DNA of 63,957 nt, filler included, from Stramenopiles sp. TOSAG23-6 (GCA_900128565.1; 3 parts of 3 records of this genome joined end to end with filler, not necessarily neighbours in it), one strand, 5' to 3'; counted from the first letter of the whole stretch, positions 1,970-63,957 are shown. Made by a program: numbers and translations. The notes: generated from the sequence alone by a model not told the origin.

Positions 1970-3200
1970 ATGGCATTGTCACCAAGAGTTCGTGATGCTG
2001 CAGAAGCTGCAAGTCGTGGTTTCCGAGGATACCACCAGGACAGCAATAGCTTTTATTCTCTCCCTACAAAAGCGGATCTGGTTGGCCCAGCACCTCCACC
2101 TCATTGGGCTCGTACATCTAGGGATATACATCAGCAAGAAAGTGACGATTACTTGGGAAGACTTAATCAACGACAAAGTACTTTCAAAACGTTGAGTGGA
2201 CAAACAAATACACAGGAGAATGTTAATCTTGATTGGGGAGGACATGCTATTCGCAAAAGAGGTCGTCGACGTCGTCATCACCGTGCTCAAAAAGATTCTG
2301 TCGCATCTCTTTTTTCTGGTTCTGGTGATGTAGAAGAAGCAACAGATCTACATAAGTTTGGATCTAGAAAACATATCGACTACAAAAAAGATCCTCGTTT
2401 TGCTCCTAATGAAAATGAAGTCAATAGTATTATGGACAAATCAATAACTAGTACAGGGACATACCAATTAATACAAGGACCTGGAGGTCGGGCTCAAAAT
2501 AATCCAGATAGATGGAAGACTTCCTATCAAGCTCAGGTTGGACATGAAAATGTTTCCACAATGGATAAATATGAAAGATCTAATTCTATTCTACGCAAAC
2601 ATGGGCGAAAAAAATATTTCAAATCACCATATGAGAATTCAAATTCAAATATTGTAACTGGTTTATACGGAAGACCATCTCAACAATATATTCGTTCCAG
2701 TAATTTTAGTAAAACACCTGCTAGACAATATTTGTATGTTTTATGTGAATTTCTAATTAAAATTTTTTTTTTGGTTTTCATACGAAATTTTGTACCTAAC
2801 AAAAANTNANTTTTTTTTTNGAANTATTTTTNACANTATTTAAAACCAGCTGTACGAGGTACAGGTGGATTTGGAGGAATTGGTGGAGGTGCATGTATGT
2901 TTTCATCATTAGTTTATATTTATTCATTTTAGTATAAAACGTTTTACCTAACGATTTTTTTTTTTCGGTAAAAAAAAAAAAAAATTATTTTTTCACAATA
3001 CATCCTTGCTCGATGGTATAGTAGAAAAAGTATCTCAGCAGACTTTAGATTCTAGAAAAAAGTTCAACGGTTCCTCTACTAATACATATAAGAGAAGTGG
3101 TTCATCTCAATATGAACTCCGTAGAGAAGATCCAGGTTTGATGTTGGAAAATTTTCATATTGAAAAAAGTGGTTTTACAGGGAAACGAAGATTTTTATAA
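1970..3200 (+). CDS. Hypothetical protein, 3 exons (1970-2733, 2842-2894, 3004-3200)
   Basis: Removing two family introns joins ORFs 1970 and 3006 in frame. Confidence 0.7.
2734..2841 (+). other. Family intron, GT..TT (108 nt, in frame)
   Basis: TT|GTATGTTTT, TTCATACGAAATTTTGTACCTAAC, ends ACANTATTT|A AAA CCA; several N bases inside. Confidence 0.7.
2895..3003 (+). other. Family intron, GT..AT
   Basis: AT|GTATGTTTTCAT ... TACCTAAC ... TTTCACAATACAT|CC TTG; restores frame. Confidence 0.8.
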
Positions 3201-3250
3201 TTTATAGTTTATAATAAAAGAAACAAAAAAAAAACATTTATTTAATCCAT

Positions 3251-5206
3251 TTATCTTAATTTTGAATCAATTACTCGTATCTCAGCAATTATACAGGAAA
3301 CAGAATGAAGTAATAAACACATGTTTGAAGTGAAAGGTTCTCCATTAGAAGAACACAACAGAATAGCATTTTTATCATTTTTTGTCAAACATTTTTGGTT
3401 ATTTTGTTTTGTTACTTTCATTACACTTGAAAATTTACTATTGTATTCATTTGAAATTGAACGTATGCTAAACTTTTTCACATCACGAAATAATAACTCC
3501 AGACGAGAACGTCTCATTTCATAATCCAAAATTTGCTCTGAGTTTTGAACAGTTTTTAAATGTATTTTTGATGTACAATACTTTATATACGATACAGCAT
3601 TACTATTGGATACAAATATATTTTCAAATATATTTTCAAATATATTTTCAGATACTCTTTTAGATGTATTTTTAGATGTATTTTTAGATGTATTTTTAGA
3701 TGTATTTTTAGATATATTTTTAGATATATTTTTAGATATATTTTCGTGTATTTTGTCCATTATGCTCTGTTTTTTTGCATCCTCGAGCTCATATATACAC
3801 ATTTGCGTATAATTTTCTTCTGAACTTTGGACTGCATGAACGCCTCCTGTGTCATAACACCAACCAGTAGCAGCCACTAGATGCCTCAACAAATTTTCAG
3901 GAATATTTCGTGCAATCATTTGTAGAACAAACATCTCTAAAAGTTGATTGTACGAAATATTCGTACCTACATTAGACATTTCAAGAAAAATGTTACTATT
4001 ATTTACATTATTTGCTGACTTCCTACACGTCTTTCTATATAATAATTGTCTCGCCGTAGATTCAAGACAACACCGCAATTGGTATCTTGGCACACCATCC
4101 TTTTTTTTATTGACATTTATAGCTATCTTGTTTAAAATCTTATCTAATTTTGCAATATCAATTTTTGACTTCTTTTCAATTTTTGAGGTACTTTCAAACG
4201 GATTTTGAGCAAACCTTTGACAACATAATTTCGCTATCTTTGATTGTACATCAGATTTGTCTTTTAATAAACTATCAATGGTCAAACCATCAGCATCACA
4301 AGTTAATAATTCCATAAGGAGGAGCTCTCGAAGTTTTCTTGTATCAGTGTCTTCACATTTTGAAACAACATCAATTTTGGTTAATTTACGTTTCTTTTTT
4401 GAATTTTTTGTATTTTTTGTATTTTTTGAATTTTTTGAATTTTTTGTATTTTTTGTATTTTTCACATTCTTTGTATTTTCTATGATAGATGTACTTGTCA
4501 TGGTGACATCATGTAATGAGTTATTATTAATCATCATTCGATCTGTAAGAATACCTCGTTTCCGCTTTCGAGAATTTTTCAAAAATGCGTCGGAATTCGT
4601 ACGAGAATTTTTACTTAAAAGTGTTGTCGTTTTTTTCCTTTTCAAGAACAATTTGGACTTTTTCTTAGCCACTTTACCAACTAATTTGGATTTCTTCACG
4701 ATGTTGTGCGTTCGCTTTCTACTAGTATTTTCTTTTAAATTATGAAACAAGACTTCCTTAGATTTCCTTGCCTTACTCGCTTCTGCTGCTTTTTCCGAAC
4801 GTGAACGAATTGCACCTTTAGTTTCTGAATTTAAGAGACTCTGCACCATTAATTTTTGCTGACAAGTTCCAATGGTTGCAAAATATTTCGAGTCTCTTGT
4901 AGAACTATGTTTGGCTTTTGGAAGTACGTCTACATCTGTAACCAACGCAGCACAGTAACAACCACCAGTGGCCTCATCAACTGAACGTAGTTGGTACATT
5001 TTGGTGCCGACTGAAAGTACAGCACCCGTCCAAGGCGGGCCGTTGGAAAGAGATTGCAAATCCAGAGTCAATTCCTCTGGATTTGTTTTATGCATCGAAA
5101 ATTGCTTCATCAATGCAGGTGTCAATCGAAGAGCAATAGGGGCAAATACAGACGACCGTAACTCTGAGTCGTGTCGCACATCAAATTGACTACCGTCGTC
5201 CGCCAT
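3251..5206 (-). CDS. Probable RNA polymerase II elongation factor ELL-like protein
   Basis: IGTCQQKLMV...IRSRSEKAAEASKARKSK resembles the ELL N-domain; LRELLLMELL...LDKILNKIA...YQLR resembles the middle region; VQNSEQILDY resembles the occludin/ELL C-domain; recognised by eye only. Confidence 0.5.
   Translation of the reverse strand: MADDGSQFDVRHDSELRSSVFAPIALRLTPALMKQFSMHKTNPEELTLDLQSLSNGPPWTGAVLSVGTKMYQLRSVDEATGGCYCAALVTDVDVLPKAKHSSTRDSKYFATIGTCQQKLMVQSLLNSETKGAIRSRSEKAAEASKARKSKEVLFHNLKENTSRKRTHNIVKKSKLVGKVAKKKSKLFLKRKKTTTLLSKNSRTNSDAFLKNSRKRKRGILTDRMMINNNSLHDVTMTSTSIIENTKNVKNTKNTKNSKNSKNTKNTKNSKKKRKLTKIDVVSKCEDTDTRKLRELLLMELLTCDADGLTIDSLLKDKSDVQSKIAKLCCQRFAQNPFESTSKIEKKSKIDIAKLDKILNKIAINVNKKKDGVPRYQLRCCLESTARQLLYRKTCRKSANNVNNSNIFLEMSNVGTNISYNQLLEMFVLQMIARNIPENLLRHLVAATGWCYDTGGVHAVQSSEENYTQMCIYELEDAKKQSIMDKIHENISKNISKNISKNTSKNTSKNTSKNTSKRVSENIFENIFENIFVSNSNAVSYIKYCTSKIHLKTVQNSEQILDYEMRRSRLELLFRDVKKFSIRSISNEYNSKFSSVMKVTKQNNQKCLTKNDKNAILLCSSNGEPFTSNMCLLLHSVSCIIAEIRVIDSKLR
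3614..3745. repeat. Coding 12-nt tandem repeat (TTTTTAGATRTA; NISK/NTSK)
   Basis: Directly visible periodicity. Confidence 0.9.
4395..4480. repeat. Coding 9-nt tandem repeat (KNT/KNS)
   Basis: TTTTTTGTA/TTTTTTGAA units. Confidence 0.85.
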
Positions 5207-5701
5207 TTCGTTCGAAAATATTTTTACCTCGTTTCTACGATGTACACTGTATTATAAAACATTCATAAATCCACGCATTTCATTGTTTCTATATATATAT
5301 ATGAAAACACATAGACCGTATAATGTGGTTTATGATTCGAAAACAAAAAGTGAGGGGAAATGTTGTTACCTACAGGTAAGAAACACCTTATTTTCTTGTT
5401 CGAGAGTTTCAGTGTTGCTCCTTTTTTGACACGTGGCACGTGGCGTCTCAAGTCAAGTCAAAAGTCAAAGTCGTCGCGTGTCAAAAAACAAAAACAGTCC
5501 CGCGAACAACAAGTAAAATAAGCTGCAAGAGCAAAACAACACAATCTGGCTTTTGACGAGTCATTGTTTGCTGGTGACAGTGTATACAGTACTTTGAAAT
5601 AGGAATCACTAGAAGTTTCTTCATTTTATTAATCTATACGATATTATAAACTATTCTGGCTATATAGATATAGATTAGTAAGTCGGGTCTAGTTGCTCAT
5701 A

Positions 5702-8700
5702 ATGAATCGACCTCAGCAGTTGACTGTGAAACAACTCCATGGTCTTCTAAATGATCCAATCCATATTGCGTGCTCACAGCTTTATGAATTCATTAGAAAT
5801 GAAATCCGTCAATCTGGTGGTCCATCTGTCGTATCTGATGACTTTTGGCTTGATTTTTATGAAGTCTTGATGGACCGTATTGTAGGCGAAGGGTCGGCTG
5901 GCATGACGACTTACAAAGACGGCGGTTGGTTGCAAATATGTACTGGTTTTAATCCGATGTCTTCCCAAATGAAACCAACGCCTCGTTCTAAGGGACAGGG
6001 AGGTATAGCAGCATTCCAATTGATTCGTCTTTTGGGTGTTCACCCTACTGAAAATACAGGTTCTTTATTTGAGTCAGTATTTCGCAGCGCATGGGATAAT
6101 GAAGCCCAATTTTGGTACCCTATAGATATGCTTCCCGAACCTCTCATGAACACATTAAATGATTTTGCAACTTCTTTCTTATCAATGTCTCGTTCTCCTA
6201 GAGGTTTGTATACACAACAACGTTTACAGCAAGAGCGTCAGCTTTTATTACTGAGAGGATTGTCATGTGTCGAGCAAGAACACGATTTCCCAAATAGACT
6301 TAGATTAACCGCACAGGAATATTTTCTTTTTAGTTTTCTTAGATATCCAGTGTCTCGAACACGTCATGCTCGTACAAATGGTCGAACATTTGGAAAAAAT
6401 ACGTCGCGTGCTGTGAAAAAAGGATCCGTCATTCTTCATCATACGGATTGGAATACATCTGTCTCTGAGATTGCTTCTACTGATTGCTATATTACGTTGT
6501 TGATCCAGTATCTCAGTTGTTTCTTTCCGCATGGTGATGACACTTCAAATCGTGGTATGGAAATACAAGAAAGTAATTTATTAGACGTATTCAAGAATTT
6601 AATTAATCAGTTGTGGCTACATCAAAATTATCGTGCAATTGCAAGACCTGAAATGGACAGAAATATTCTGATGAATGCTCATTCAAAGAATCATTCAAAT
6701 AATCATGTCACTCCTTTCAAACACCAAAATCAGTCTCAGAGTGGTCGGAGTATTCATCATAGTAGAAATAATTGGAATTTGAATTCACCCGCACAATCTT
6801 CACGTATGGGTGAGCAAGGGAATTCTTTTCTTCCACCCCAAATGAGACATCCATACGTTGTACCCACTACAGTACAACTTAATGCTCTTCTTGCCGTTGT
6901 CGTGCACCTAGTCTCTGATCCTGGTTTACGAATTGCTTTAGAAGGTTCCACTATAATAGGTGATGGTGGTGCTGCTGCTTTAAAGGCACATGTACGTTTT
7001 CAAAATTATTATTTTTTTTAGTTTGAAATTTTTTTCAAAATTATTTTTTTTTTAGTATGAAAATTTTGTACCTAACAAAAAATATTTTACCAAAAAAAAA
7101 TTATTTCTTCACAGTACAGGATAGCGGGAAAAAATCTTTAGGTATTTTGAGAGACTTACACGTCCCCTTATTCGATTTTTTTGCATGTGCATTTTCGAAA
7201 CAGGGTTGTTCCGTTAGAGAATCAACGCATTTTGTTCAAGTTGTTGATCTTTGGTTAGTCCTTTTACAACCTTGGAATGCTGGTGTATGTGTTTTTCATC
7301 ATGAATTGTTTTTCTAATTTACCATTTTTTAATTTTTTTTGTTTTTTTAAATTTTTTTTGTATTTTTTTGTTTGTTTTGTTTTCGTAAAAAATATTTATT
7401 TGTACCTAACAAAAAAATCGAATTTCTAAATTTTATTTATAATACATGTACGAACAAATAATAGACGTGGTGAAATGAACCGTGGTACTCATAAAACACC
7501 TGGAAAAGAGAATGTACCTCAAAAATCAGGTTGGCTCTCCGGAATAAGTATAGGATCTCCTTTGGGTAATGTAACTCGCCCTGGAGGACGTACAACGCAA
7601 CCACCACGTCGTACATATACAAAATCGTGGTTAAGTTTTGTTGTAAATCATTATATGTTTTATGTTGGTTTATTTCCACGATTCTTGAAAAAAGCTCTTG
7701 AAATGGATTTTACATCTCAAGAAAAAGGTCATGTTGATGTTCTCGGTCGTGTATTAAATTTATTTCATCCGAGGCAAACAAGGGATAACACAATAGATGC
7801 AACGTCTTTACTAGGTATTGAACGTGGTGCTGCTGAACTTTTAGGTGGAAAAAATCTCCGTGCGGAGCGTGCAATGCGAGAATCTGGAGCAGATGAATTG
7901 TATGTTATTATTATTATTTTCAAATGTACTTTTTTTTTTATATACTGAATCCATTGTTTATAAAATGATAAAAACTAACAATTTTTGAATTTGACATATA
8001 TTTAACAACAAATGTGGAGGGATGTTCGTAATTGTTCAGCTTATTTGATGCGTCTCAATCAATCAACTCATGGAACTCAACTAGGACATAGAATGCGATC
8101 ATTAGCTGGTTCTCAAGGATTGAGTGATAAACATTGCCGAGAGTTATCATTTCACGTTTCATTTATGGAGGAGACATCTATACTACAGACATTTCCATTG
8201 AACCATTCTAATGTACAAGAAGAAAACTCAAACTTTGCAAATGATCCTGCAATGAGTGACATTTCTAATTTACGCTATAATAATAATAATCTTGGTCAGA
8301 GAATAAACACTTTGGATGATTTAAATTACAATGATTTTGGTTCTAAAAACAAAAACGATTCATGTATAGGTGCTAGAACTGGAGGTGGTATTGAAGGACC
8401 TGGAGATTTAAATATGCCATTAGATTCTCTGAGGACATGGCCGACATATTCACATTTAGCAGATATTCCTACAGGAGAAGTATGTGAGGAATATTCAGGT
8501 ATTCAAAGAAGCGCGAGAGAAGTGTTACAGAAAATGCGAATCGCACATGAAAAGTTTGTTCGGTTTTCGGATTCTCATGTTGCGGGGCATGGAAATACAT
8601 CGTATACGATATTGTACGGGTTTAAACAAAAAGCTGCACAGTTAAGTGATTCTTTATCTGCTGGTTCTCAGCGACGCGAAAGACAATACAAACATGCAAT

Positions 8701-9800
8701 ACGCCGATTATCAGATTTATTTGGTATTGATTTAGAAAGGTTTACAAAAGATAACCCAATTCCAAATGATGGTAGAGGATCAACGTCCGGAAAATTAGGT
8801 TCAGGTATTGATCAGTCTTCAATGCAGTCAAGTCTTGTTGCATCTGCTGTCCTTAATTGGGGGTCAAAGTTACGAGAGGGAGGTGGTCATATAAGTAGAT
8901 TGCCAGCATTTAAGGGTGAATATGGTACATACCTATCTAGAGAAGGCCGTGAGGCTGTTCGTGATGGTAAAGCTAGATGTTATAATCATCAAATTCAGTA
9001 TGTAGGTCATCCGTTACTTCGACCAGCGTGTTCATTTGAAATATCCCCTTTATTACCTTGGCTAATTCTCCTATCAGTAAAATTAGATTCTTTTGCCAAA
9101 AGACTCCTCGGTTTACCAAAGGATGAGGATATGGAAGAAAATGGATTGTCGATCGGTTTTGGTACTGGTGTGTATTCAGAAACACCCCAGTCAGAGATGT
9201 CATCTGTTCTTCAGTTTGCAGTGATGCGTTGTGAAAAAATAGAAAAAGATTATGAAATTGCTGCTGCAAAGTATGCATCAAAAAAAAACACAAATTCTAA
9301 ATCTGTACAACAAAGGAAAACACCTGGAAAGAAACGACGTAAAGAAAAAATAGATGTTAATGATCCATTGTATATATTTAACATACAAAAAGCTGCGCTG
9401 TTAGAAGGTGCGATGTTACAAGGTGATAAAGAAGTTGTTATAATGATGAGAAATCGCGGATATAAATTACTCCCGGGTCGTCAAGCCCGAGCGCACATGT
9501 ACGTTTCCAAAATTGATTTTTTCCCTATTTATTTTTCATTGTAATGGTTGTATCTAACAAATATTTGAAACAAAAAAAAATAGTTTTGCACAATACATGA
9601 TTATTAATCTTCGCCCGTTGTGTGATTTACGAAATTATTGTTTATTGTTTTCATGCATTGCTTTTGTATGGATTATTTATATGTTTCATTATTTTTTGTC
9701 AAATTTTACGATTACTGCAAAATTTAATGATCCAAAGAGCCATTTCGATGAAAATACAAAAAATGAATTCATTCCTTCTCAAGGACAAATTGGAATGTAG
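5702..9800 (+). CDS. SMPD4: Sphingomyelin phosphodiesterase 4 (neutral sphingomyelinase 3)-like, 5 exons
   Basis: Family motifs LTAQEYFLFSF, VVDLWLVLLQPW, WLSFVVNHYMFYVGLFPRFL, RPACSFEISPL, INLRPL and a C-terminal TM anchor; continuous after removing 4 introns. Confidence 0.75.
6992..7119 (+). other. Family intron, GT..AG (skips a CAG 5 nt upstream)
   Basis: CAT|GTACGTTTT ... GTACCTAAC ... TTCACAGTACAG|GAT; the first CAG would lead to a TAG stop. Confidence 0.85.
7285..7447 (+). other. Family intron, GT..AT
   Basis: GGT|GTATGT ... GTACCTAAC ... ATAATACAT|GTA CGA; in frame with ORF 7475. Confidence 0.8.
7900..8013 (+). other. Divergent family intron, GT..AT
   Basis: TT|GTATGT ... AACTAAC ... 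ACAACAAAT|G TGG; no AG after the branch point. Confidence 0.7.
9499..9598 (+). other. Family intron, GT..AT
   Basis: AT|GTACGT ... GTATCTAAC ... GCACAATACAT|G ATT; yields the SMPD4 INLR motif. Confidence 0.8.
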
Positions 9801-9849
9801 AATTCATACATGTATTCAAATGCAAAAATGATTGACCCCACTACATACA

Positions 9850-12800
9850 AAGAATGGTTTTCTTATAAAGACTATACAAAAAAGCTACAATAAAATTGTA
9901 AAAACATAAAAATATTAAATTTATTTATTTTTCTAACTCTTTTTTCCCAATCACTATTCTGGTGGTTGAGGAATAATTCTTGTCATGTCAAATCCAGTGA
10001 AAGTAAAAATGGAAAACAAACAATGATGTATACCAAGTGAAATTCTTTCCCATTTGATGAATTACACAATTATATCTTCCATCCATATGTAATCTGCTTT
10101 AGTGGGTGGCGTAGCGTCTTTTTGTAGTTTGGGTTTGATGGTGTTGTAGAAAAAGAAGTTGCTGATCTTGTCTAATTGGTGTATTTGCATTGCATGTTTT
10201 TGATTTGATGGTAGTTTTTTTGTAATATGACAATGCACTAAGAAATATTGAATAAAATACTTTAATAAATATATAATTTACAATGAAGCATCATTAACTT
10301 GATAAATGCTTCTTTGAGTCAATGATTCACATCGCAAAGCAGTAGCACCTTGTAACTCAAGTTTACAAGCTTCAGATTGTTGTTTCTTTTCAATATTTTT
10401 GTTTTCATGATATGTTTTTGCATCAAATTTAATTTGACGTTCAAATCTTTTACTATTTTGATCTTCTAATTCATGTTATACTTTGTCTTTTCCATTGGTT
10501 AAACACTTGGTCGGAATGGTTAGATTCACTTAAGTTATTGTCATGGATAATGGAAAATATTCTACTATGCATGCATGTAGTCTCTTGCGGGAGAACATTC
10601 TCTGATTTATTTCTTCGGCAGTTACAGATTTTAAATCCAGTAATGTTTTTATATGGCAAAAATCTTCTAATATTTCACTGACTCTAGCACCAACTCCATT
10701 AAGTTTATCAGTTTGATTGAGCTCATAAATTACTGAAAGATAGGTTTCAATTGTCCTTGCTGGTTCAAGGCTTGATATACACAACTGATTTTGTGCAACA
10801 CAATTGTTTGCTTTTGTTTTTACAGCATGAAACACACCAGGGTGCGTTTGCAATTAGAATGAATTAAAGTCCTCTTATGTATTTGGCATTCCATGGGATA
10901 CCGGAACATTTGCCAACACTATGATCCACCGTCATCATTTGTTCAATTGGAACTTCGATAACATGTAAACCACCCAGCCTGGCAGTTGACAGTTCACATA
11001 TTCCAAGTTTTCCTTCTAAATTCGATACTGCACCATCAGTTACTCCCTCTATTGCTATGGTTTCAATTACTTTGGACTCTTTTAGTAGATTGATATCACT
11101 TACAGCGCTAAAGTTTGCACCAGAATCACAGCGGATCAGGGATCAAACCGAAATCAAAGGCATACCAATTGACCTACATAACTATTGTTAATTGTTGCAT
11201 GTAAAAGTTTTGTTGCTGTTGATGACATTGATACTTTATACAATGGTTTAAAACCAACTTGGTCAGCCTTATCAGCATTTCCATTTTTTTGTTTGTACAC
11301 ATGGGAAATTGAATCTTCTGATGTGACTTTTGAATTTGTTTTCTTTTTTTCAGATATTACATTCTCTAACATATCTTACAGGAATATGTGCACCTTGTAG
11401 TTGCAGATTTCCCCATTGTTGTTGATTGACAGTAGGATGTTGTCCAATATGATTTCTCAATTAGCATTAGATAATTATATCCTTCCTCACACAGATCTTT
11501 TATTTTTTCAAGAGCAGCATCACAGATTTCCATACTTGTTGTGAAGACTGCAACATTTGTGTGCCTAAATGACTCCAACCATATAAGGTTGGAGAACATC
11601 CAGTCAAAGCATTGTTTTTTGTCTAAGACTGAGAATTCTTTCCCATAACAGGAATAGATTCCTTTTGAAACTGACCCAAGAACCCTACATAGGATCTCCA
11701 TCCTAAATGTTGGTGTACATTTGGATGGAAGATCTTTAGACTCAATAAAGGACATTGCAGGTCCAGACTTTTCAATTTGCTCCAGGAGTGATTTCTCTTG
11801 TTTAGATAGATCTGCTCTCCCATCATCCTCAAAAAGGACTGTGATCAGTCAATCCTCTCATGCCATTATCTCTTATGAATTTAAAAAGTTTTTGAATACC
11901 TTTTGATAAGAAGATAATTGGCATGTTTTCAAAATTCTCCTCATACTTACTTTTAATACTTATTTTTTGTACTGTAGGTAAGAGTCAAGTGTACACCTAT
12001 TCAGTAATGTATGTATCTGTCTCTTCAGACAAGCCTTGTTTTGGGCTTGGTTATTTGTATTGTTTTGGTTTATACAGTGATTTTGCATTGGTCTTTGCTT
12101 ATCTCTTTCAGTCTGCTTTGGTACATCTCTCCATTGAAAAATGACAAAAGCTCCTTATCTCTAATTTTAATTAAAATTCTCTACTTTTCTTGTAATCTGT
12201 CTCCAACATAACCCAGAAAAACACATTCATCAGACTGTATAGTTTGACTTGCATCTGTGGAGAAATGATCTCTAAGTTGTTCTTTAGGTGATGGGTTGTT
12301 ATCTTTGTCATCATTCTGCTTCTTTTTCTTTGACAGCAAATTAGACAAGTCAACAGTTCTGTTATGTTTTTTTTTTGTACTATCTTTCTTTGGTGTGATA
12401 GTCATATTGTCTGAATCAAAGGTTGCTCCCATCACTGTTTTCACCAAGGGCAAAAAAATTGTCCAAAAACTTATTGGCTTCTTCACTCTTTCCACCAGTT
12501 AAAGCCTGATTGATCTTTTCTGTTAAGCTTTTTTTTTCAGTGTCTAGTAGCTTGACTGCTGTAGTAGAAGTCTCCTTTGCATAAAATCAGGATTTTTTTT
12601 GCAACATTTTGATTTTGCTGTAGTGGTATTGCCATCAACTTTGGTGAATGGGGGATTTCTTTTCTGAGGACAATTTGTGGTTATTGTGTTGCTTCCATTG
12701 GTGTGAATAGAATTTTGTTGGACATACAAAAACTTCTTCACCAGTGCAATGTAGCTTATTTATTCCTGATCTTAATGCTTTGAATTCATCTACACTCAGA

Positions 12801-13400
12801 TCATCTTTAGTTTTATTTGGCCCATCATGTGTAGATGTGACCTCTAGTCCTGGATCCAATAACAGTGCTGCCTGCTTTTTGATAGGTCTTCTCACAAGCA
12901 GTTGGGGATGGTAGGCTTTACAATTACACTGAAACATACTAGGAGTATCCATAGTGGTTACTCCTTACCATTGTGGTATACTGTTGCCATAGTGGCAACA
13001 GCAAAATATGTATTCCAGTTTGATTTTTTTTGATTACTTTAGGTTGTTCTGTAAAGAGAGGTAAGTGTAGCTAGCTAGTAGCTATTTTGTGGTGAGTGGC
13101 TTGGGGTAGCAAATTTTTGAGATCTGAAAAAAATTTAAACAGCAGGTTTGTGCCTCAAATTTTTGTTGCTAACATCCTGCAGATTCAAACAGCAATGTAA
13201 AAGGCAAAAACTTATACAATTAGAAGAAAAAAAAAATATTTTTAAAGATGAACTTCAACTCAATCTGTGATATCTAAACTTCTGTGTTTATTTCCTCCAG
13301 TAGTTGTTTGATACTAAAGAGTTTTTTATTTCCAATTTATTTCCAATACAAAATAGAAATACAAAAAAGAAATACAAAAAAGAAATACTAAAAATACTAA
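9850..13400 (-). pseudogene. Degraded, CpG-depleted element with fragmented minus-strand ORFs (probable transposon or viral relic)
   Basis: Short broken ORFs only; no CG dinucleotide found from 11151 to 13533; weak integrase-like IRCDSGANF near 11110-11140. Confidence 0.45.
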
Positions 13401-13463
13401 AAAATACTATAAAAATACTAAAAATACTAAAAATACTAAAAATACTATTTTTATATATTGGAA

Positions 13464-14339: not shown

Positions 14340-14375
<36 letters not shown>

Positions 14376-14416
14376 AAAATGAAAAAAAAAAAAAGAAAAT
14401 TTTTTTGGGTTAAAAT

Positions 14417-14454
<38 letters not shown>

Positions 14455-15038: not shown

Positions 15039-15116
15039 NNNNNNNNNNNNNNNNNNNNNNNNNNNNNNNNNNNNNNNNNNNNNNNNNNNNNNNNNNNNNN
15101 NNNNNNNNNNNNNNNN
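15039..15116. other. Assembly gap (N run)
   Basis: Run of N. Confidence 0.95.
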
Positions 15117-47268: not shown

Positions 47269-47360
47269 ATATGTTTTATGTTTTTTCAAACTCGAATTTT
47301 TTTTTCGTACGAAATTTTGTACCTAACGATTTTTCTTTCAAATATTTTTCTAAAATACAT

Positions 47361-53390: not shown

Positions 53391-53726
53391 TTTTGTTTGA
53401 AACGTTTTCCTTATTGTGGATTAATGAATGGAAAAACAAAACGGTTTCATCTCGGATTTTGTATGAAACGTTTTCTTTATTATGGATTAATGAAAATGAG
53501 AAAAATTAAATTGCTCATGCGTTGTATATATAAGTGGTATGAGTAATGTATAATAAGTGTATATATAGTATAATTTTTGTAGTGCATTTTGTGCTACGCC
53601 NAAGATAATATCATATAAAAAGAAATTTGTGTTATAATATTTTATATTCCCACCAAGATATTTTGAATTGGGATTCCAATATTATTTAGTGTTCACATGA
53701 GATAATTAGTCACTCTTTCCTCATTA

Positions 53727-55874
53727 TTAATGTAATGTTTGATTCTTTGCCATGAAGCGTTGGAAATCCCGAAGCTTACAGTTCGATAATTTTGATGCAT
53801 CTACAGCATATTTTTGACACGTCTGGGGTAAACGGGAAAACTCTACTGCGAGACTTTGCTTTGCTTTCTCATCTGCCTCGGCAACACCAGCAACAATTAA
53901 TACCATAGCTTTTGTAATATTGGGATGGATTTGAGAGTTTTGAGGTAAAGAATTTGGGCAATTATTTTCACTCATTCCAAAAGAATTTGTAGAATCTAAC
54001 ATAATTAGTTTATGCTTTTGTGACACAAGATCTGCAAGTTGAGAATGAACAACTCTAGCTTCTATGACATCACCCATGAGTGGCATTTTATTAACCCATA
54101 ATTCCATCAATTTTGATATCTTCACATCTCCTAAAATTTGGCCATGTGAAAAACAGATTCGTCCTAGTGCACCAATCGCATTATCAACTGCATCAATTGA
54201 TTCTTCTTTTAATGTAATATCCGTCAATTTATCAGCTTCTGAAATGAGGTTGGTGATTCTTTCAATTGCTTGAATACAATATGGTTGAAAATATTGTGCA
54301 GCTTTTGCTGCACATTGACCAATTCCATATAATGAACATTGTTGAATTCCGCGATGTTGACTTTGGATTGCATCAATAACAAGAGGAATAAATTTATTTG
54401 CGAAAGTTGCATGAGCAGTTGGACCACAATGTTCAATGATATCATCAAATATACATATACCATTGATACGTAAACTATCAGACATGTCTGTTCCAAGCAA
54501 TTTTTGAAACATAGACTGAACTTGTGCTGCCTCAAATACTGGTAAAAATGCACCTTTATGGATTTTAATCATATAACCAATTCCATCCACAATTTCCGTC
54601 ATTAATTCATCTTCCTCCTCTAACTCTTCTTCTAAAGCATCCTTTGCTTCCTCGTCAAAATATGGATCATTTTTAGCTTCATTTTCCACTTGAATACGCC
54701 GCGTCACACTCGCAGCTGCACATTGCACAAATATTGATGAAATCTCTTGACATCTTCTAATAGATGGTACAAGAATTGCTGGTGCAAGAAATGGAGCCTC
54801 GAAGTTTTCTTGTTTTGCAGTCGGTGCACCTGATCGGTAACAAACTTCCATCAAAGTCTTCAGTCCTTCAGCAGCACATGAAATATCTTCAATATCACCT
54901 TTTTCCATTTCAGTCTTTACACTATTCACTAATGCAGTAATACATGCTTCAAGTAAAGGTTGTATAATATTCGAAGACTGCCCAGCAGATACAGCACCAG
55001 CAATAGCAGATCGCACAAGCTGTGGTAACGCCAAAACAGCAGCAGAACGAACACCAGCAAAATATTGAAAAGAAACGCATGATTGCATTAGAATTTTTGA
55101 TGCGTCTTCAACAAATGGATAAAAATCTTCACGAAGAATTTCGGCATATTCTCGAATACAATTCACTGCACTATGTTTTTCTTCAATTGCGCACGTATTT
55201 AAACTAATTCTTTTATTACCAAATCCTCGTATATTTAATGTAGCATGAGAAAATCCTGTATTCGTAGCTTCCGAATTATCTTGAGTCACATCATCATCGA
55301 CGTCAGTGACAGTGTATGACACTTCAACAGCAGCCGCACGAAATAATGAAGGCATTACATGTGGTAGATAACATTTAAACGCAGAACCAATAGTACGACA
55401 AATATTTACACAACAATTTGTCAAAGCTAAAATCTGTGGATCACTTGCACCTACTTCACCATTATTCATACGAGCAAGTGAAGGTTGAAGCATATTCATT
55501 ATAGCATTCGCATCTGGTTGAAAAATTTCAGCATCAACAGATGCAACAATCAAACCGAGACATTCCAGTGCTCTTGCACGAAGTGAAGCTTGTTTTGTTC
55601 CAGTACATGTTCCATTTGGATCAAGAATTTGTTTCAATCCAGGAATAAATGAGTTATAATATTGATTGAAATCTGTTTCTACAATAGTAGCTACACAAGC
55701 GACAGCTTTTAATGCTTCTTCTTGAACAGCTTGTGCAGAGTTACCTAATGAAACAGCATTACTTAATAATAAACATAACGAACCTAATAAATCATTTAGA
55801 TGCGGTTCTATCGCCTCTTCAGGACATTCATTTGGTGTAGCAAAGCATGTTATACATGATGCTGCTTGACCACG
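53727..55874 (-). CDS. IPO5: Importin-5 / Kap121 family karyopherin, C-terminal half (5' end cut by the inversion junction)
   Basis: VRGQAASCI, VQEEALKAVACVA, LRARALECLGLI, IRGFGNKRISLNT..IEEK, ICIFDDIIEHCG, AVDNAIGALGRI. Confidence 0.9.
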   Translation of the reverse strand, partial: RGQAASCITCFATPNECPEEAIEPHLNDLLGSLCLLLSNAVSLGNSAQAVQEEALKAVACVATIVETDFNQYYNSFIPGLKQILDPNGTCTGTKQASLRARALECLGLIVASVDAEIFQPDANAIMNMLQPSLARMNNGEVGASDPQILALTNCCVNICRTIGSAFKCYLPHVMPSLFRAAAVEVSYTVTDVDDDVTQDNSEATNTGFSHATLNIRGFGNKRISLNTCAIEEKHSAVNCIREYAEILREDFYPFVEDASKILMQSCVSFQYFAGVRSAAVLALPQLVRSAIAGAVSAGQSSNIIQPLLEACITALVNSVKTEMEKGDIEDISCAAEGLKTLMEVCYRSGAPTAKQENFEAPFLAPAILVPSIRRCQEISSIFVQCAAASVTRRIQVENEAKNDPYFDEEAKDALEEELEEEDELMTEIVDGIGYMIKIHKGAFLPVFEAAQVQSMFQKLLGTDMSDSLRINGICIFDDIIEHCGPTAHATFANKFIPLVIDAIQSQHRGIQQCSLYGIGQCAAKAAQYFQPYCIQAIERITNLISEADKLTDITLKEESIDAVDNAIGALGRICFSHGQILGDVKISKLMELWVNKMPLMGDVIEARVVHSQLADLVSQKHKLIMLDSTNSFGMSENNCPNSLPQNSQIHPNITKAMVLIVAGVAEADEKAKQSLAVEFSRLPQTCQKYAVDASKLSNCKLRDFQRFMAKNQTLH

Positions 55875-58800
55875 TACCTTTTCGTATGATTAAAAGAGTT
55901 TTAATAGTGGGTACCTGTATTATGAATATATATATATATATAATAATAAACCGTCAGGTACGGAATTTTCATACAAAAACAAAAACAATTTGAAATTCAA
56001 ATGAAGGTTGAAAACGTACATAATGATTTCTTTTTGCAAGATCAACTACAATCGCCGATTTCGGTCTGTTTCGTAATTCCAATTCACGAGACGAAACGGC
56101 AGCAACAAATCTTCGTCTTGAGTTCAATACCTTCCACTCATGACGTAAGCAAGTCAATTGATGTTCTTTGCGTAATGTATAAAATCGAAGTCTTGTTTCA
56201 CAGAATTTCTGTAAGATTCGATCTGTTCCAGATATGCAGTAGAATATATGTCAAACTTGAAATTTATTAGTTTTTGTTTTTTTTGTAATGTTACAAAAAT
56301 TGGATTCGAAGAAATAAAAATAAAAATCTTTTTTGTTTAGGTACAAAATTTCGTACGAAAAAAAAATTAATTTGAAATGAATGATGAAGACGTACAGAAT
56401 CGTTCAATTTTCATACCTTCATAATCAAGTAAATGCATATTGGTCAGCATCACACCATTCGTAAGTTTAAATTCAGTCTCCAGTTTAGAACGCGTATTTA
56501 AAATTTGGTCGTGATTTTTACTTGAATCAAGTTCAATGTTGAAATATACTGAATTTTCAGTATGATTTTCACGAACTTTCTTTATCGTTACTTTACTCTT
56601 TTTAGATGAAACTTTTTTAACTTTGCCCTTTTTCGAACTAACACTGTCATCATCGTCATTGTTACTCCCTTTCTTCTTTTTCTTCTTACTCTTTGGTATA
56701 GGAACATCATACATATTTCCAAGAACTTTTTCCTTGTATGTAGACGTCCACGCTCCAACTGGTAATTCAGTAATACAGACTTTGTCATCTTCAAAATTTG
56801 CAGTACCACAAAAATTAAATTTAGTACCATCACCACTTACATCCTGAATGTCACCTTGAAAACCTTGGTACCATGGTACCATTGGTAAAAATTTCTTATT
56901 TGCGATGAAACGTCTGACATTTTCAATGACTTCACGAGGACTAAAATTCGGGATAGAAGTACTCCAACCAGTAGCAATGCCACTTGCACCATTAATCAGT
57001 ACCATAGGAATAATAGGTATAAATGCTTTTGGTTCAACCATTTGACCTTCATCTTCTAAATACTCAAGAATCGCATCATCTGTGGCAGGAAAAATTAATC
57101 GTGTAATTTTTTCAAGTCTTGTAAAGATAGGTATAGTGAAAAATATGACAAATTCGAATTTTTTGTTAGGTACAAAATTCATCTGAAAATAATATAGTAG
57201 AACAATACATTTGAAATTGTAATGAATAATTAAAATGTACATAACGAGCACTCGCGTGATCTTTTCCACCAAGCAAACGTGTACCAAATTGACCACCTGG
57301 GTATAATAAATTAATATTATTCGACCCAACAAAGTTTTGAGCCATACTCACAATAGTTCCTTGTAAGGAAACTTCACCATGATGATAAGCAGAATGTTCT
57401 GAGACATAACCAGCTAATTGAGCAACTTTAATTTCTTTAGTCAGTTTACGTTTAAAACATGCAAACAAAACTTTTCTTTGAGAAGGTTTGAATCCATCAA
57501 TAATACACGGAATAGCTCTACGAACAGTAGCTCTAGAATATTGGATGAGTTCATTATTAATGAAATCGGTATATTTTATACTTTTTTTGTTGTAATTAAT
57601 TGCACCGTTCAATTCAGCATCATAAGCTAAAAGCCATTTTTTTCGATCATCTGCTTTTGACTTTGTAAATGCTAAATCGATCCATTCTCTATCAGCACGT
57701 TGAGGTAAACCTTTAGCATCTAAATTTCTTGGAGTATTCATAGAACTACTATCAGAACATGACGCAAATGTTTTCAAATGTTTCTTCATATCACTAAAGT
57801 ATTCCTTAGCTTCTTTAGATGTCGAAGTACCTAAACCTTTATAATACTTGATATGCCAACCCATTGAAGATATATTTTCGGAAAATATGTCAAATTCGAT
57901 TTTTGTTTTGTTAGGTACAAAATTTACTATTAAAAAAAAATAATTTTGAAATTCACGATGGAAACGTACATGCACTTAAACCACCATCACGTTCATTTCG
58001 TTCATTTTCCCAATCATTGTAATCACCAAGTGTATAGAAAGTAAATACTTCTTTTTTTCGTGTAGCTTTAATGATGGGAGTAATAAATTGTTTTAAAAAT
58101 CCTTTTTTCTTTAGTAAAGTTGGGTTGTACCAATCAAAAAAATTAATTAAAAGACCTTTGATGTGAGAACCATCATCGTCTTGATCAGCCATAATCATAA
58201 CAGAACCATACCGAAGAGATTTCAATCCAACTTGTTCGTAATCTTTATTTCGATCTAACCCAATCACTTTAATAATTGTTTGGATTTCTTCGTTCTTTTT
58301 AATATTTGCGTACGTAGCATCACGTACATTTAAAGGTTTTCCTTTCAATGGAAATACACCAAAATTATCTCTACCAATGACTGATAATCCAGCAATCGCT
58401 AATGCTTTAGCAGAATCTCCCTCAGTTAAAATTAAAGTACAATCAGAACTTTTACGGCCACCTGCATGTATTTTGGGAAAATATTTTCAATTGTTTTTTG
58501 TTAGGTACAACATTTACTATAAAAAAATAAATGAATTTAAAATTGATCATGAAAACATACATTATTCGCATCATCCAACTTTTTAACACCACGCATAGAT
58601 GCATTTTTTGTTGTTCTTGAATTTATAATTTGTCGGCGGTGATTATCATCAAAGCTCGCAAGTATTGTGAAAAAATATGATTATTAAAAAAAAAAAAAAA
58701 ACGTTAGATACAAAATCTTTTGGATTAGGTAAGAAATAAAATTAGTGTATGATGAAAACGTACATATGCAGCAACTGCAGCAACAATTCCTGTAGCTGGG

Positions 58801-60350
58801 GAAACCACCTTACGCAGAAATTTTTCAGGCAATTGAATTTTAGATGTGAATTGCGATTTTTTCGTTGTTAGTTTTTCTTTCGTTTGTGAACTAAAACTCG
58901 GGTTATCAATGAGAGCATTAACAAAAATCATTAAATGATTTTTCACAACTGAAGGTCGTGGTTTAGCCATTTTCTTGTCTTTTTTAGATACAGCAGAAAT
59001 AATTGCATCGACAACAGATTGCGTAATCACATCAACATGACTTCCTCCATCAGTCGTAGAAATTGCATTCACAAAACTATGGTGTCTAAAATGACCTTCA
59101 GAAGAAAGACATACTGCAACCTCCCATCTATTATTTACACTTATATAACATACCTTTGTCAAATCAAGATCCTCCGTGAGTAACGAAGAAGATGAAGGTG
59201 AATTAGTCGTCATTGTGCTACACGGTGAACTTTGACTTGAAGGTAATGCATTGCGTATTGGTGATGACATCGAATTGTCAAGTACAGTATTTTTACTCTT
59301 AGAAAATACATCATTCGAAGATGATACACTTTTTCCTTCTGATCCATTCAATACACTCGGTTTGATATTTTCACCATTGGTAGAAGCATCCAAAGATATT
59401 TTATTCGCATCATACTGAATGCCAACTCGACATAACTTCACATATCGAATCAATCTGTCCACACCAATACGTTTGTTATTAATATACATCTTTAAAGTAC
59501 CACGAAAACAAGCAGCAACATCATAGCAACGCCTCTTCATTAACGAAACAATGTCACGGTCAAGGCCATTCATTCCACCAAATTTTGAAAAATCAGGTCG
59601 GAAAATTACTTTAGTGTATTCCAAGATTTTCTTCTTTGCACCTGTTGGTTTCGCATCCGTTATTTTTGGTTCATTTTTTTTATACATATTGTTCGTCCAA
59701 ACTTGACGATATTTCAATCGTGCATTTGCATCAACCGTTTCAATAACAAAACGATTAGAAAAAATATTGGCTAACTTCGCACCATAACCATTCCTCCCAC
59801 CAGTCGTTTTCTTCTCCTTGTCATCATAATTACTACCTGTCAATAAGACACCAAATATACCTTCAGCAACATATGTTTTCCACTTCTTATGCTTCTTCAC
59901 AGGGATACCTGAACCATCATTAGTCACTGAGATTTCGCCTTTATCGACATCAAATGACACTTTAATGTATGTTTGTTTCTTACCACATCTTTGCTTATTA
60001 TCAGACGCATTTACAAGAACTTCATCAAATATCTTATACAATGCAGGGACATACGTAATAGACCGCTCACGAAGAGTCTTTGAGTCATCGTCGTAGACGA
60101 GCATCTTTGCCGTATGTTCTTCAGTACTCCCGACATAACTATCAGGTCGTTGTAGGATATGCTCATGCTGATCCAAACGTTGATATTTTTCTTCTACGCT
60201 TTTCCTTGTACCCTTTTTCCCGGAAGACACATTCTTTTTGCCCATTTTAATTGAATCCTCTGTACTATCACTGAGACACGAGAAGTTGCTATCATCATCA
60301 GAATTAGAAATATCAACTTTGTAGTCAACCTTCTTACGTGCTCGCGACAT
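55875..60350 (-). CDS. TOP2: Second, 3'-truncated copy of DNA topoisomerase II (likely artefact)
   Basis: Same ORF translations as 47959-52434. Confidence 0.7.
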
Positions 60351-61040
60351 TTTTTCGTCGAATATAAAGAATCTTTTCAAAACCAAATAAATTGAAGATC
60401 AAGGTTAGTAAACGATCCCAAATGTAAAGTGAATAATGCAAGGTAGGCGAAGTTTACTGACAATTATTTCAAAATCAACAGACAGAAATTGTTATTAATA
60501 CACGTGCACAGTGCGTGTTCTCTTTGGCTCGGCGTTTGTTGTTTTTGAGTGACGTCACAACCCTAACCCTACTNTGAATTTTTTTTTTTATACATAGTAT
60601 AACTAGGGTATACTGGGATAGGTATTAGAAATTGATTGATAGAGTATAAATCAGTTTCATCCAAGATTTTATAACAAAGGGTACACCCCATGATCAATCA
60701 CGTAAGACTATGGATAGTAAAATCAAAAAATCCTAGCACGAGGAATCCATAGTAGTACAAAAACACAAAAACACGAAAAAAAACAATATGTTTCTTCTAA
60801 ATTCAATTTATTGTGAAGGATAAAAATTACTACAACGATCAAATACTTCACACTATGCTGCCATCATTCCTTCTAATTCTGCCAATTCGTCATCTTCCTC
60901 CAAAACTGGAGCTGTTGTTGGAGCAGCTGGTAAATTCATACTGATATCATGTATTTTAGAAAAATATTTGAAAGAAAAATCGTTAGGTACAAAATTTCGT
61001 ACGAAAAAAAAATTCGAGTTTGAAAAAACATAAAACATAT

Positions 61041-62736
61041 AGCCTCATACACACCACTACATTTTTTATGCATGCGAAAATATGCAAGTTGAAAAGAAAG
61101 TTGTAGAACAGCATCAGGAGAAACATTTAATTTTTTAAAGTCATTTTTACCCAACGATTTAACTTCTATCACGTGAAGTCCAAGATGTATTTTGGAAAAA
61201 TATTTCAAAAAAAAAAACTTAAATTTGTTAGGTACAAAATTTCGTACGAAAAAAAAATCATAGAAAAAAAAAAAATAAAAAAATAAAACATACATTATTC
61301 GTAGTATCAGTGACCTTTTTTACTGATTCATTGATAGTAGTTTGAATAAAATCTGGGATATTAAAATTGAGTTCTTGAGTTTGAGGCTCTAATTTGGAAT
61401 TTAATTTCATATTAGTTTCATTATTTTTTGTTTTCTCTTCATTTGGGTTAGGAAAATCTTGCAGAGTATCGAATAACCAACGATTCCACATTGAACCATC
61501 AGAAAAAGAATGCTCGAAATTAACACTGATGCGCGAGTTTTTGTCTATAATAATTGTTGGTTTGTCGTACCATCGATCTGAGAGTGAGTTACCTGGTAAT
61601 CCATGAAGACCATTTCTTGTGGCGCGTATTAAATCATTTTGACTATGATTTGAACTATTTTTATTTATACAGTTTGATACATCTAATGTAACAACAAGAA
61701 TTGCTGTATCGATCTCAGTGACATGAGAATCATTCAAATTGTCAAATTCAATCAAAGATTTTCTGGTTTTGTACCAAGTTTCTCTATCTAAACTAGTCAA
61801 AATTCCAATTCCTGGACCATCATTTATTTGGTTACAATAATCAACTATACAAGATAAATTTTTAATTAAAGTTTCAACAGATAAAATTTCATTTTTTTTC
61901 ATTTTTTCACAACTTTCAATAAAAACATTTAACTTAAAAATATGACCACGATGCAAGATTACAATATGCTTTGCGTTTTTATTGAATAATTGTTTGTCTC
62001 TTGTAGCACCAGGAATTCTTGATGATCCACATATTGTGAAAAAATATTTTTTTTTTTTCGTAAAAAAATCGTTAGGTACAAACTTTCGTACTAAAAAATA
62101 TAATTTAAATTCACGATGAAAACGTACATGAAATGTCTCAAACTGTGACATGCACTGACCAGGCAATGGACCATCAGCTGGTAAATGTCCAAGGCGAACT
62201 TTCAAAAGCCATTTAAGTGATGAATTTATAAACTTCGCCGCCTGGCTCACTTGTGTCGTGTTTTCATTAGGGTTAGGGTTCTTCAACGTAGAGATATTTT
62301 TTTGTGGATTAGGATGAAGTATAAAAGCAGGATTCACATTAATGAGTAATGGATTACGCCCAGATAAGTACATATCATCCCATTGTCTTTCAATAAACGA
62401 ATAAGGATATTTACCAGAGCATTGAGAGTTTTTTTCACACCGTTCAAGTTCTTCTTGCAACTTTGATCCAATACCATTAATGAAACTTTCAACATCTCTC
62501 TGATGTGCCTCAAATTCACCATCACTGATACAATAAGGATAAACGCTCTCTAAATAACGATGCATGGTGTCTTCCAGGTTTGGTAGTGGAAGTCTAGGTA
62601 GAGATGGGTTGTTCTGGATAGACTTTTCTACACTAGTTGACATTTGTGTCCTTGCCTTTGGTCTCAAGACGCATCTTTGCAAAACATGATGCAACTGACG
62701 AGTTTGTACAATACTATGAAAATATCTACAAAACAT
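61041..62736 (-). CDS. Second copy of the carnitine O-acyltransferase (likely artefact)
   Basis: Identical ORF translation; intron 2 is intact in this copy. Confidence 0.7.
61185..61293 (-). other. Family intron, GT..AT (intact version of the intron starting at 47039)
   Basis: AAT|GTATGTTTT ... TTTCGTACGAAATTTTGTACCTAAC ... CCAAAATACAT|CTT GGA. Confidence 0.85.
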
Positions 62737-63004
62737 ATTTTGCACTTCTACTGCTTTGTAAACAAAGTGCAACTTTGGTGATAAATTGTGTTACTACAGT
62801 GAACAATAGAGATTGATGATCTCAAGATTAGTCTGATAATAATAAAAGTATAGTTGTGGGAAGAGCATATCAAACACGACTAACCCTAACCCTATATGCG
62901 TCCAAATATATCCGATATGACAGTTTTTACAGTTTCAAAAGAAAACAAGTTAGTATAGCAGTCTTATGAATTTCAGCACAAATTTGTGAAAAATAAGCTG
63001 GAAG

Positions 63005-63902
63005 ATGACGACCCATGTTGGCCCTCATAAACTCGAGGGTGGGCCAGATACAGTCGCAAACATTTGGAAGCAGTGGTATGCTGCACGGCATGGAAAACTA
63101 GACAGAATGAAAGTCCTTCTTCGGCGTCCTGGATATGACGATTGTCTTTGTGACGATGAGTACGGACGAACGAGTCTTCATTGGGCATGTAAATATGGTC
63201 ACACTGAAATGTCAAACTTATTAATTTCTTTAGCAACTACTGACAATATGATAAATAGGGTAGATTGGGGTGGAAATTCAGCATTGCATTTTGCCGCAGG
63301 CTGGGGCACAAAAGTACTGGTGGGGTTATTATTGAGCCATTCGGCCGACCCAACTTTAACTAATTCCAAAGGACAAAAACCAATAGAAGTCGCAAAACAA
63401 ATGAATCAAAGTGATATCATTGGAGTATTAAATCGATGGGAAAAATCAATAGATACAATGATGTCGGAAACTGCCGTTGAGGCTGTACTCAATAGAGAAA
63501 AGTTTGTAAATAGTACGCTACATCCAGATGCTTTAAAAAATATGGTACTCAAAGAAACTAAAGCGGACATGATCTTATTAAGTGATGATGAAAGGGAAGA
63601 TGACTCGAGTAAACCATCGATGCGTCATGGATATCCGGTCGATTTAGTTCCATTGGTCACAGAAATTGAGACATCAGAGATACCAAAAAATGAGAGCGAA
63701 ATCAGTATTTTAAATTTAAAAAAAACTTTGCATATGAAAGAAGAAATACTAGGAAAGCAGCACAATGGAATTTCTTTGACTCTACGTAAATTAGGAAATC
63801 TCTATATAAGTGAACTTCAATATGAAAAAGCTGTCCCTGTTCTAACTAAAGCTTTAAAAATCACGGAACAAAATCTAGGGCTTACACATCCTGATACGGC
63901 AT
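63005..63902 (+). CDS. Second copy of the ankyrin + TPR first exon
   Basis: Mirror of 44430-45327. Confidence 0.7.
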
Positions 63903-63957
63903 GTATGTTTTATTTTTTTTTCAAATTCGAATTTTTTTTCGTACGAAATTTTGTACC

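Follow-up and report, generated by a model that had tools for sequence, protein, structure and literature searches.

What produced the introns in a 63,957-nucleotide stretch of DNA from Stramenopiles sp. TOSAG23-6 (GCA_900128565.1), and where do those introns end? In this window, as the whole stretch is called here, the first-pass annotation had noticed that introns of unrelated genes share motifs beyond the splice signals, and had read them as probable copies of an introner, an intron-generating element. The present census covers this one 64-kb window and excludes the duplicate copies in a foldback that makes up its third contig. It comprises 25 complete and three partial introns, 28 copies in 55,671 bases (55.7 kb) of unique sequence, and all 28 are mutually related. 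Taken together, the data suggest that these are probably introns of the major (U2) spliceosomal type, all belonging to one high-copy introner-like family. The main new point is their 3' end, which is not AG in nearly all of them and whose position is fixed by both reading frame and homology.

With the 5' border set at GTAYGT and the 3' border set two bases after ATAC or ATAT, 24 of the 25 complete introns begin with GT. The 3' ends are AT (17 introns), TT (3), AG (2), AA (1), GT (1) and CT (1), and the final intron base is T in 22/25. The annotation had placed the intron end at ...CACAATAC; the true stop lies two nucleotides (nt) later. At all 24 testable junctions, exactly one frame is open over 90+90 nt when the introns are removed in this way. 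Moving the 3' end by -2, -1, +1 or +2 leaves an open frame at 2, 5, 3 and 5 junctions, respectively. The spliced open reading frames (ORFs) reach 1599, 1200, 1061, 514, 444, 444, 421 and 345 amino acids (aa), with six introns in the 1599-aa ORF, four in that of 1200 aa, two at 514 aa and three each at 444 and 421 aa.

Homology also places the borders. The 1599-aa product is a topoisomerase II, and against ten homologues it is gap-free at junctions 1, 2, 4 and 5; junction 2 restores DDANN/AGG, and junction 4 restores ARY/IFT with the catalytic tyrosine. At the introns starting at 49546 and 51069, no frame-keeping GT-AG or GC-AG pair is found within 30 nt. For the intron starting at 49749, the sole same-length alternative would replace AG residues present in 10/10 homologues. 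A placement two nucleotides leftward, which would give AT-AC borders, was rejected: it converts the catalytic Tyr to Ser at intron 51069, and the two introns ending in AG cannot be read that way. In a carnitine/choline acyltransferase gene, the junction between exons 2 and 3 (intron 61185-61293) is contiguous on CPT2 structures, at about residues 410/411.

Standard gene finders mis-splice these genes because the introns end in AT, not AG. The effect is visible in the closest database protein, P0001, whose source name contains the string MAST3 and which is letter-identical to the window across correctly predicted exons. Its model of topoisomerase II (47911-53387) is only 64% identical overall to the first exon's translation. 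With canonical sites forced, the model uses the branch box as a mini-exon, reads intron as protein and skips parts of real exons.

The introns are alike from end to end. Common to the family are GTAYGTTT, a T-run, CGTACGAAATTTTGTACCTAAC, and AAATATTTTTTCACAATAC followed by two nucleotides. In aligned order, GTAYGTTT leads into a variable stretch that often contains AATTTCAAAT or AAATTCGAATT, then the T-run, CGTACG-AAAT-TTTGTACCTAAC, a variable A/T spacer, and the 3' motif with its two terminal bases. The four motifs that the first-pass annotation had reported all exceed chance: the 26-nt core has 16 matches (at most 3 mismatches) against 0.00 expected, the 20-nt 3' motif 18 against 0.06, GTAYGTTTTYAT 19 against 3.4, and CAAATTCGAATT, the weakest, 44 (at most 2 mismatches) against 22.8. 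The branch box TACCTAAC occurs with at most one mismatch in 24/24 family introns examined, and the distance from the branch A to the 3' end is 34-105 nt (median 42). Lengths of 91-112 nt, stated earlier for most introns, apply to 19/25. An nhmmer profile recovers the family copies in the window and nothing else at E < 1e-4. It misses a diverged intron at 7900-8013, in which ACTAAC replaces the usual branch box and the core is absent, while GTATGT, the T-run, GAATTTGACATAT and the terminal AT are retained; its removal fuses the ORFs 5693-7945 and 8006-9797 into the 1200-aa frame. The earlier statement that only one intron type is present holds in that all 25 are related, and needs qualification for this member. 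As a separate observation, the element holds two TTCG..CGAA palindromes, TTTCGTACGAAA in the core and AAATTCGAATTT elsewhere. The latter lies at 7413-7426, 20513-20526, 22222-22235, 44397-44410, 47287-47300, 50405-50418 and 51147-51160; one subfamily has it in the 5' spacer, another in the 3' spacer.

Judged as canonical U2-type GT-AG introns, the family has the GT donor and the upstream branch box and lacks the terminal AG in all but two members. U12-type introns have the donor consensus [AG]TATCCTT and the branch box TCCTTAAC about 10-26 nt before the 3' end. Assignment to that class was rejected on the donor, GTAYGTTT, and on the branch box, at a median of 42 nt from the end. A nonconventional intron of the euglenid or diplonemid type, or a hairpin intron, would have stably paired ends and no U1-type donor, and was likewise rejected: the 24 introns folded have a mean z-score of -0.3, and the donor is conserved. 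Pairing of a 5' junction AUGUAU with a 3' AUACAU was looked for as covariation between donor position 4 and position -6, and between exon and intron end dinucleotides, and none was seen.

Shared signals could reflect constraint at each site without common descent. Residues were therefore permuted within alignment columns in 1000 trials, a procedure that keeps site-specific constraint and destroys linkage. The standard deviation of pairwise identity is 0.075, against a null maximum of 0.059; the best pair reaches 0.934 against 0.851, and the mean of the top ten pairs 0.844 against 0.787. None of the 1000 permutations reached the observed measures, and the excess persists in the 53 variable columns alone. 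The best pair, 93% identical, consists of the introns at 15747-15837 and 42067-42159, which lie in unrelated genes on different contigs. Nearest neighbours are at least 0.79 identical for 14/24 copies, and subfamilies have common spacer strings of 10-20 nt. Identity is 0.27 in the exon flanks, compared with 0.60 (5') and 0.71 (3') in the intron ends. The introns show two of the features by which introners are recognized in the operational sense of Gozashti 2022: whole-length likeness among unrelated host genes (topoisomerase II, the acyltransferase, a UCH protease, a ThiF-family enzyme), and likeness bounded by the exon-intron borders.

The distribution of the copies is uneven. All 28 lie on the coding strand of the host gene, with no clearly intergenic copy; outside introns there is one candidate, a weak 22-nt fragment at 17221-17242. 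Topoisomerase II has six introns in 2.9 kb; the 19 kb and eight genes of 23034-42066 hold none, where 9.2 would be expected (P about 1e-4). Of the spliced ORFs of at least 200 aa, 13/24 hold no intron. The long genes reported as intronless are each a single ORF: WD40 (24099-25199), bZIP (26668-28977), trypsin-like protease (34249-36597) and importin (53730-55889). TCTP was also inspected for an in-frame intron that might have been overlooked; there was no evident sign of one. The annotation had also counted three contig ends inside the core. Those at 44274 and 44375 are confirmed, and the third, 63957, equals 44375 through the foldback, which leaves two independent ends.

Read as RNA, each copy carries the donor GUAYGUUU, a U-run, the CGUACG palindrome, an extended branch box UUUGUACCUAAC, the U-rich tract AUAUUUUUUCAC and a terminus of AAUAC plus two nucleotides, with the 3' cut made at a fixed place after AUAC or AUAU instead of at AG. 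On the introner-like reading, the family would have grown by self-copying into new sites within transcribed genes, and its conserved blocks would have been retained by selection for splicing. An RNA-level route, in which the intron reverse splices into AU/G sites and is then fixed by reverse transcription and recombination, is favoured because the intron borders are exact, target-site duplications and inverted ends are lacking, and only the coding strand carries copies; it has about an even chance of being correct. The lineage's spliceosome may have adapted its recognition of the 3' site to the element. Post-catalytic spliceosome structures show the first intron G and the branch A recognizing the terminal AG. 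With AU at the end, the A would stay and G·U would stand where G·G normally forms, and the CACAAUAC block together with the U-tract may fix the cut position. Changed or lost second-step fidelity factors would be one lead for non-AG cutting; loss of yeast Prp18 activates non-YAG sites (PMC10711555, in its available part). The fullest version of the proposal joins these elements: nearly all introns of this uncultured stramenopile descend from one self-copying intron, the 3' AG has been replaced genome-wide by ...AAUAC-AU (U last), second-step recognition co-evolved, and spread occurred by reverse splicing. As a whole, this version is tentative, with somewhat less than an even chance.

Environmental libraries offer a view of the element outside this assembly. 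Seawater metagenome and poly(A) metatranscriptome contigs were aligned to the window (5422 contigs). In a seawater DNA run the summed depth is 428-21860 in element bins and about 4-8 over exons, and the element lies 100- to 4000-fold above exons in seawater metagenomes, depth being a sum over all organisms in a sample and not a copy number. In an independent seawater metagenome, the element is where contigs break off and accumulate. Three poly(A) RNA contigs (records 19, 22 and 30) stop matching exactly at predicted exon ends, at 44430, 47128/47268 and 52289; the RNA support for splicing is a hint only. Across the exon 4 junctions of topoisomerase II, no near-identical RNA-derived protein fragment comes from this organism; the best of 1583 exon 4 matches are 59-61% identical at full coverage and up to 67% over part of it. 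The exact core pattern has 0 matches in metagenome contigs. An 18-nt core scan gives 0 matches in viral contigs and four in prokaryote contigs, about the number expected by chance in 596 billion bases by rough estimate. A looser two-block pattern, TTTGTACCTAAC...ATATTTTTYCA, gave 16 metagenome loci that were rejected as unrelated single matches lacking a donor or family context. As a side observation, these 16 loci represent a conserved stretch in AT-rich contigs of other organisms, a different family that looks coding and not intronic.

Several observations weigh against the introner-like reading. A position-by-position scan for target-site duplications shows no diagonal of excess matches (best +3.8 over 6 positions x 24 introns). 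Exon and intron ends are the same in 11/24 introns, as two independent AT frequencies predict, and by reading of the flanks only one of the 8 introns with a non-AT exon end matches its intron end. For terminal inverted repeats, the consensus scores 21 against its own reverse complement and shuffles score 23.5 +/- 5.4; the inverted match of the ends is limited to the four nucleotides GTAT/ATAC. There is no hairpin or unusual fold over the 24 introns folded, and nothing positively points to a transposition mechanism. Pairwise identity averages only 0.66 over 100 aligned columns, with no identical pair seen, and much of the likeness could come from functional constraint rather than youth. In the RNA libraries, the ratio of element to exon depth is about as high as in DNA; this gives no sign of efficient removal and may reflect DNA in the RNA libraries. 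RNA record 31 has an unmatched end where no intron is seen. Among the 15 joints listed, with 189 more beyond the listing, none removes a single intron: all skip at least 212 nt or join opposite strands, and they are read as links between different copies. Finally, to speak of most introns of this genome is to extrapolate from one 64-kb window. The annotation's introner reading is partly supported, by linkage, subfamilies, border-limited similarity, unrelated hosts and the metagenome contigs that break at the element.

Might the likeness have arisen with no copying between sites? Ancient, immobile introns would then carry long motifs as selected signals of an unusual spliceosome. The conserved blocks do look selected: conservation is 80% or more in 47 of 100 alignment columns, the spacers having drifted, and the conserved columns coincide with the expected places of the donor, branch site, U-tract and 3' end. 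It is plausible that a non-AG 3' site needs additional recognition sequence, and the diverged intron keeps GT..AT. To this extent the annotation's own alternative, that the motifs are selected splicing signals, has merit; it falls short at the linkage, which exceeds every column permutation with the variable columns included, at the spacer strings of subfamilies and the 93% pair in unrelated genes, and at the strong clustering that leaves 19 kb of genes empty. Ancient, immobile introns are an unlikely explanation. Ectopic gene conversion between short introns, a form of concerted evolution, could uphold likeness where no new insertion occurs; near-identical pairs and subfamilies would be expected from it too, and dense copies offer many partners. 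However, conversion requires prior homology, which leaves the same element in unrelated genes unexplained, and the similarity stops sharply at the exon borders, making this a very improbable account.

A DNA route deserves separate attention, since many known introners are DNA elements (Gozashti 2022, PMC9860276, as far as its available text goes). A miniature inverted-repeat transposable element (MITE) inserting at CAT/G-like sites with a short duplication would read CAT/GTAT...ATACAT/G as inverted ends plus duplication. The flanks lend themselves to such a reading, with AT at exon positions -2,-1 in 16/25, AT as the last two intron nucleotides in 17/25 and G at exon +1 in 15/25, and the two internal palindromes could be further traces. 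Against it stand the coincidence of exon and intron ends at the level of independence, the lack of a match diagonal, a reverse-complement score no better than that of shuffles, and the restriction of every copy to the coding strand with none clearly intergenic; a MITE-type origin is improbable. It is scarcely credible that the segments are not RNA introns at all and represent somatically removed DNA, as in ciliates, or an artefact of amplification or assembly. The third contig does contain clear artefacts, namely a foldback, a deletion of 23 nt and a probable chimera, but independent seawater DNA and RNA runs contain the same element in abundance, the GTAYGT donor and yeast-like branch box are spliceosomal marks, and taking out the 25 insertions keeps the frame every time.

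Comparison with known systems clarifies what is distinct here. Budding yeast introns carry the signals GTATGT ... TACTAAC ... YAG. The present family resembles them in its donor, GTAYGT, and in the bulged A of a long branch box that hardly varies, and differs in the extra C of the box, in about 30 more conserved positions and in having no YAG. Dothideomycete introner-like elements are introns of about 100 nt in near-identical, sense-only copies without duplications, for which RNA-level spread has been proposed; they are said to fold stably and to end in AG. Here, the ends are AT and the fold z-score is that given above. In contrast to the introners described elsewhere, essentially every intron seen here seems to come from a single family. 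The non-canonical introns of the tunicate Fritillaria have a MITE origin. The available text on this tunicate describes a spliceosome adapted to introns that escape the GT/AG rule (PMC13326754); there the introns are varied and the 5' end is also non-canonical, whereas here it is GT in all but one. In the marine protist Amoebophrya, the majority of introns depart from the GT-AG rule, and some of the introns are repeated elements that spread like transposons (PMC7789003, in its available part). Those elements carry inverted repeats of 8-20 nt, which fold into a hairpin, and direct repeats of 3-5 nt, and their end dinucleotides are not fixed; the present family has no hairpin and no direct repeat, and has a canonical donor, a strong branch box and a fixed 3' motif.

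The closest likeness is to the introners of Micromonas pusilla and Aureococcus anophagefferens and to the wider set of Introners (Gozashti 2022, PMC9860276, in the text available): alike end-to-end sequence in short introns of unrelated genes, likeness limited by the borders, and a marine unicellular host. According to the same partial source, some described families lack duplications and inverted ends, and the families are GT-AG spliced as far as described, the surveys starting from annotated introns; here 23/25 ends are non-AG. That study screened 520 Tara genomes, and a related family may be catalogued there. A literature search in which the supplements of Gozashti 2022 lay outside the scope returned no link between MAST-3 or MAST-4 and introners, and no GT-AT intron class. 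In the available part of PMC5778133, introns are mentioned only within gene-prediction methods. Among the closest cases, none, in the source texts available, joins a canonical donor and branch box to a fixed non-AG end.

Bursts of intron gain are at present best explained by introners, whose families are found by comparing annotated introns. A non-AG family is invisible to annotation-based surveys, and it wrecks gene prediction, as in P0001. If the AT ending is true, it would show how far the AG rule can relax with canonical donor and branch signals, would put to the test the idea that splicing rules can be reshaped by an invading element, and would call for corrected annotation of single-cell and metagenome-assembled genomes of this abundant group of marine grazers. 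On the fullest version of the proposal, this would be the first GU-AU intronome with otherwise canonical signals, and a natural system that links intron gain to an altered splicing code. If the spliceosome co-evolved with the element, the U2 branch-binding sequence would be expected to match UACCUAAC.

Table. Family members and related features, in window coordinates
Position	Strand	Feature	Basis
2734-2841	+	Intron, GT..TT, phase 2, contains single-base Ns	Family member
2895-3003	+	Intron, GT..AT	Family member
6992-7119	+	Intron, GT..AG, one of two canonical ends	Family member
7285-7447	+	Intron, GT..AT, long T-rich insert	Family member
7900-8013	+	Diverged intron, branch box ACTAAC, GT..AT	Generic donor-plus-branch scan
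9499-9598	+	Intron, GT..AT	Family member
14275-14491	-	Intron of ThiF-family gene, internal tandem duplication, GT..AT	Family member
14822-~14905	-	3' half of member (GGCTAAC ... ACAAAATACAT)	3' motif; profile E 0.6
15536-15639	-	Intron, GT..AT, phase 0	Family member
15747-15837	-	Intron, GT..AT, 93% identical to 42067-42159	Family member
17221-17242	+	Core-like fragment (GTACGAAATTTTTGTACCTAAG), no donor or 3' motif, between divergent genes	E 0.16
20289-20385	+	Intron, 5' GTAGGC, ..AT	Family member
20495-20599	+	Intron, 5' GTATAT, ..AA	Family member
20816-20914	+	Intron, GT..TT	Family member
22204-22302	+	Intron, GT..AT, 14 nt past contig 2 start	Family member
22415-22514	+	Intron, GT..AT, branch box TACGTAAC	Family member
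22961-23033	+	5'-truncated member, substitute donor GTCAAC, ..AT	Profile match
42067-42159	+	Intron of UCH-domain gene, GT..AT	Family member
44210-44274	-	3' half of member, fatty-acid hydroxylase gene, cut within core by contig 2 end	
44375-44429	-	5' half of member, Ank/TPR gene, cut within core by contig 3 start	
46205-46303	+	Intron of carnitine/choline acyltransferase gene, GT..GT	Family member
47039-47126	+	Left-arm copy of intron 61185-61293, last 23 nt lost	Arm comparison
47269-47360	+	Member starting ATATGT, ..AT	Acyltransferase locus
49546-49649	+	Topoisomerase II intron 1, GT..TT	Homologue alignment
49749-49843	+	Topoisomerase II intron 2, GT..AT, junction DDANN/AGG	Homologue alignment
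50340-50439	+	Topoisomerase II intron 3, GT..AT	Frame
51069-51180	+	Topoisomerase II intron 4, GT..CT, directly after catalytic Tyr codon (ARY/IFT)	Homologue alignment
51914-52077	+	Topoisomerase II intron 5, GT..AT, long 3' part	Homologue alignment
52290-52394	+	Topoisomerase II intron 6, GT..AG	Family member
55872-63957	.	Inverted duplicate arm of contig 3; second copies of contig-3 introns, not independent	Arm complementarity
61185-61293	-	Second acyltransferase intron, intact copy, GT..AT	Family member

The window consists of three contigs (1-22089, 22190-44274 and 44375-63957) joined through N44-TTAATTAATTAA-N44 spacers, with one additional N gap (15039-15116) and scattered single Ns. Contig 3 is a foldback: its arms, 44375-52437 and 55872-63957, are 100% reverse-complementary except for 23 nt and enclose a unique middle of 3.4 kb. 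The 23 nt are present at 61183-61205 in the right arm only, having been lost from the left arm at 47126/47127, and form the intact 3' end of the intron whose left-arm copy lost it. Such a foldback is a typical chimera of whole-genome amplification or assembly. Because contig 3 is an inverted duplication, copies past 55871 were not counted twice.

Two loci in the table require comment. Past exon 3 the acyltransferase breaks off, near residue 458 of the 626 in the CPT2 structures, and what follows the member at 47269-47360, the only intron to start with AT, is an unrelated short acidic C-terminus with a stop (to 47453) that is not acyltransferase. This intron may be a mis-join of two loci, an assembly chimera inside the repeated intron. 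The partial copy at 14822 directly precedes the ATG ATG of the ThiF-family ORF, and the N gap upstream obscures its 5' end. The 217-nt intron of the same gene contains an 85-nt tandem duplication, 86% alike, at 14297-14466 (-), flanked by very long T runs.

With a G+C content of 30-39%, the window is that of an AT-rich eukaryote, and its genes are eukaryotic: topoisomerase II, the carnitine/choline acyltransferase, the UCH protease and the ThiF-family enzyme, together with WD40, bZIP, importin, TCTP and ankyrin/TPR/LRR proteins. Rfam and tRNA scans of the window found no RNA genes. A run of short broken ORFs (92-160 aa), free of family introns, occupies 9800-13460 (-); neither a Pfam family nor a homologue matches it, and a decayed gene or a mobile element may lie behind it. 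Coding tandem repeats lie at 21331-22020, 33933-34196, 43367-43579 and 593-963, with units of 69 nt (a BspA-type LRR protein; an IQ-motif ORF), 12-15 nt (RGG-like, at the end of the UCH gene) and 99 nt (ankyrin).

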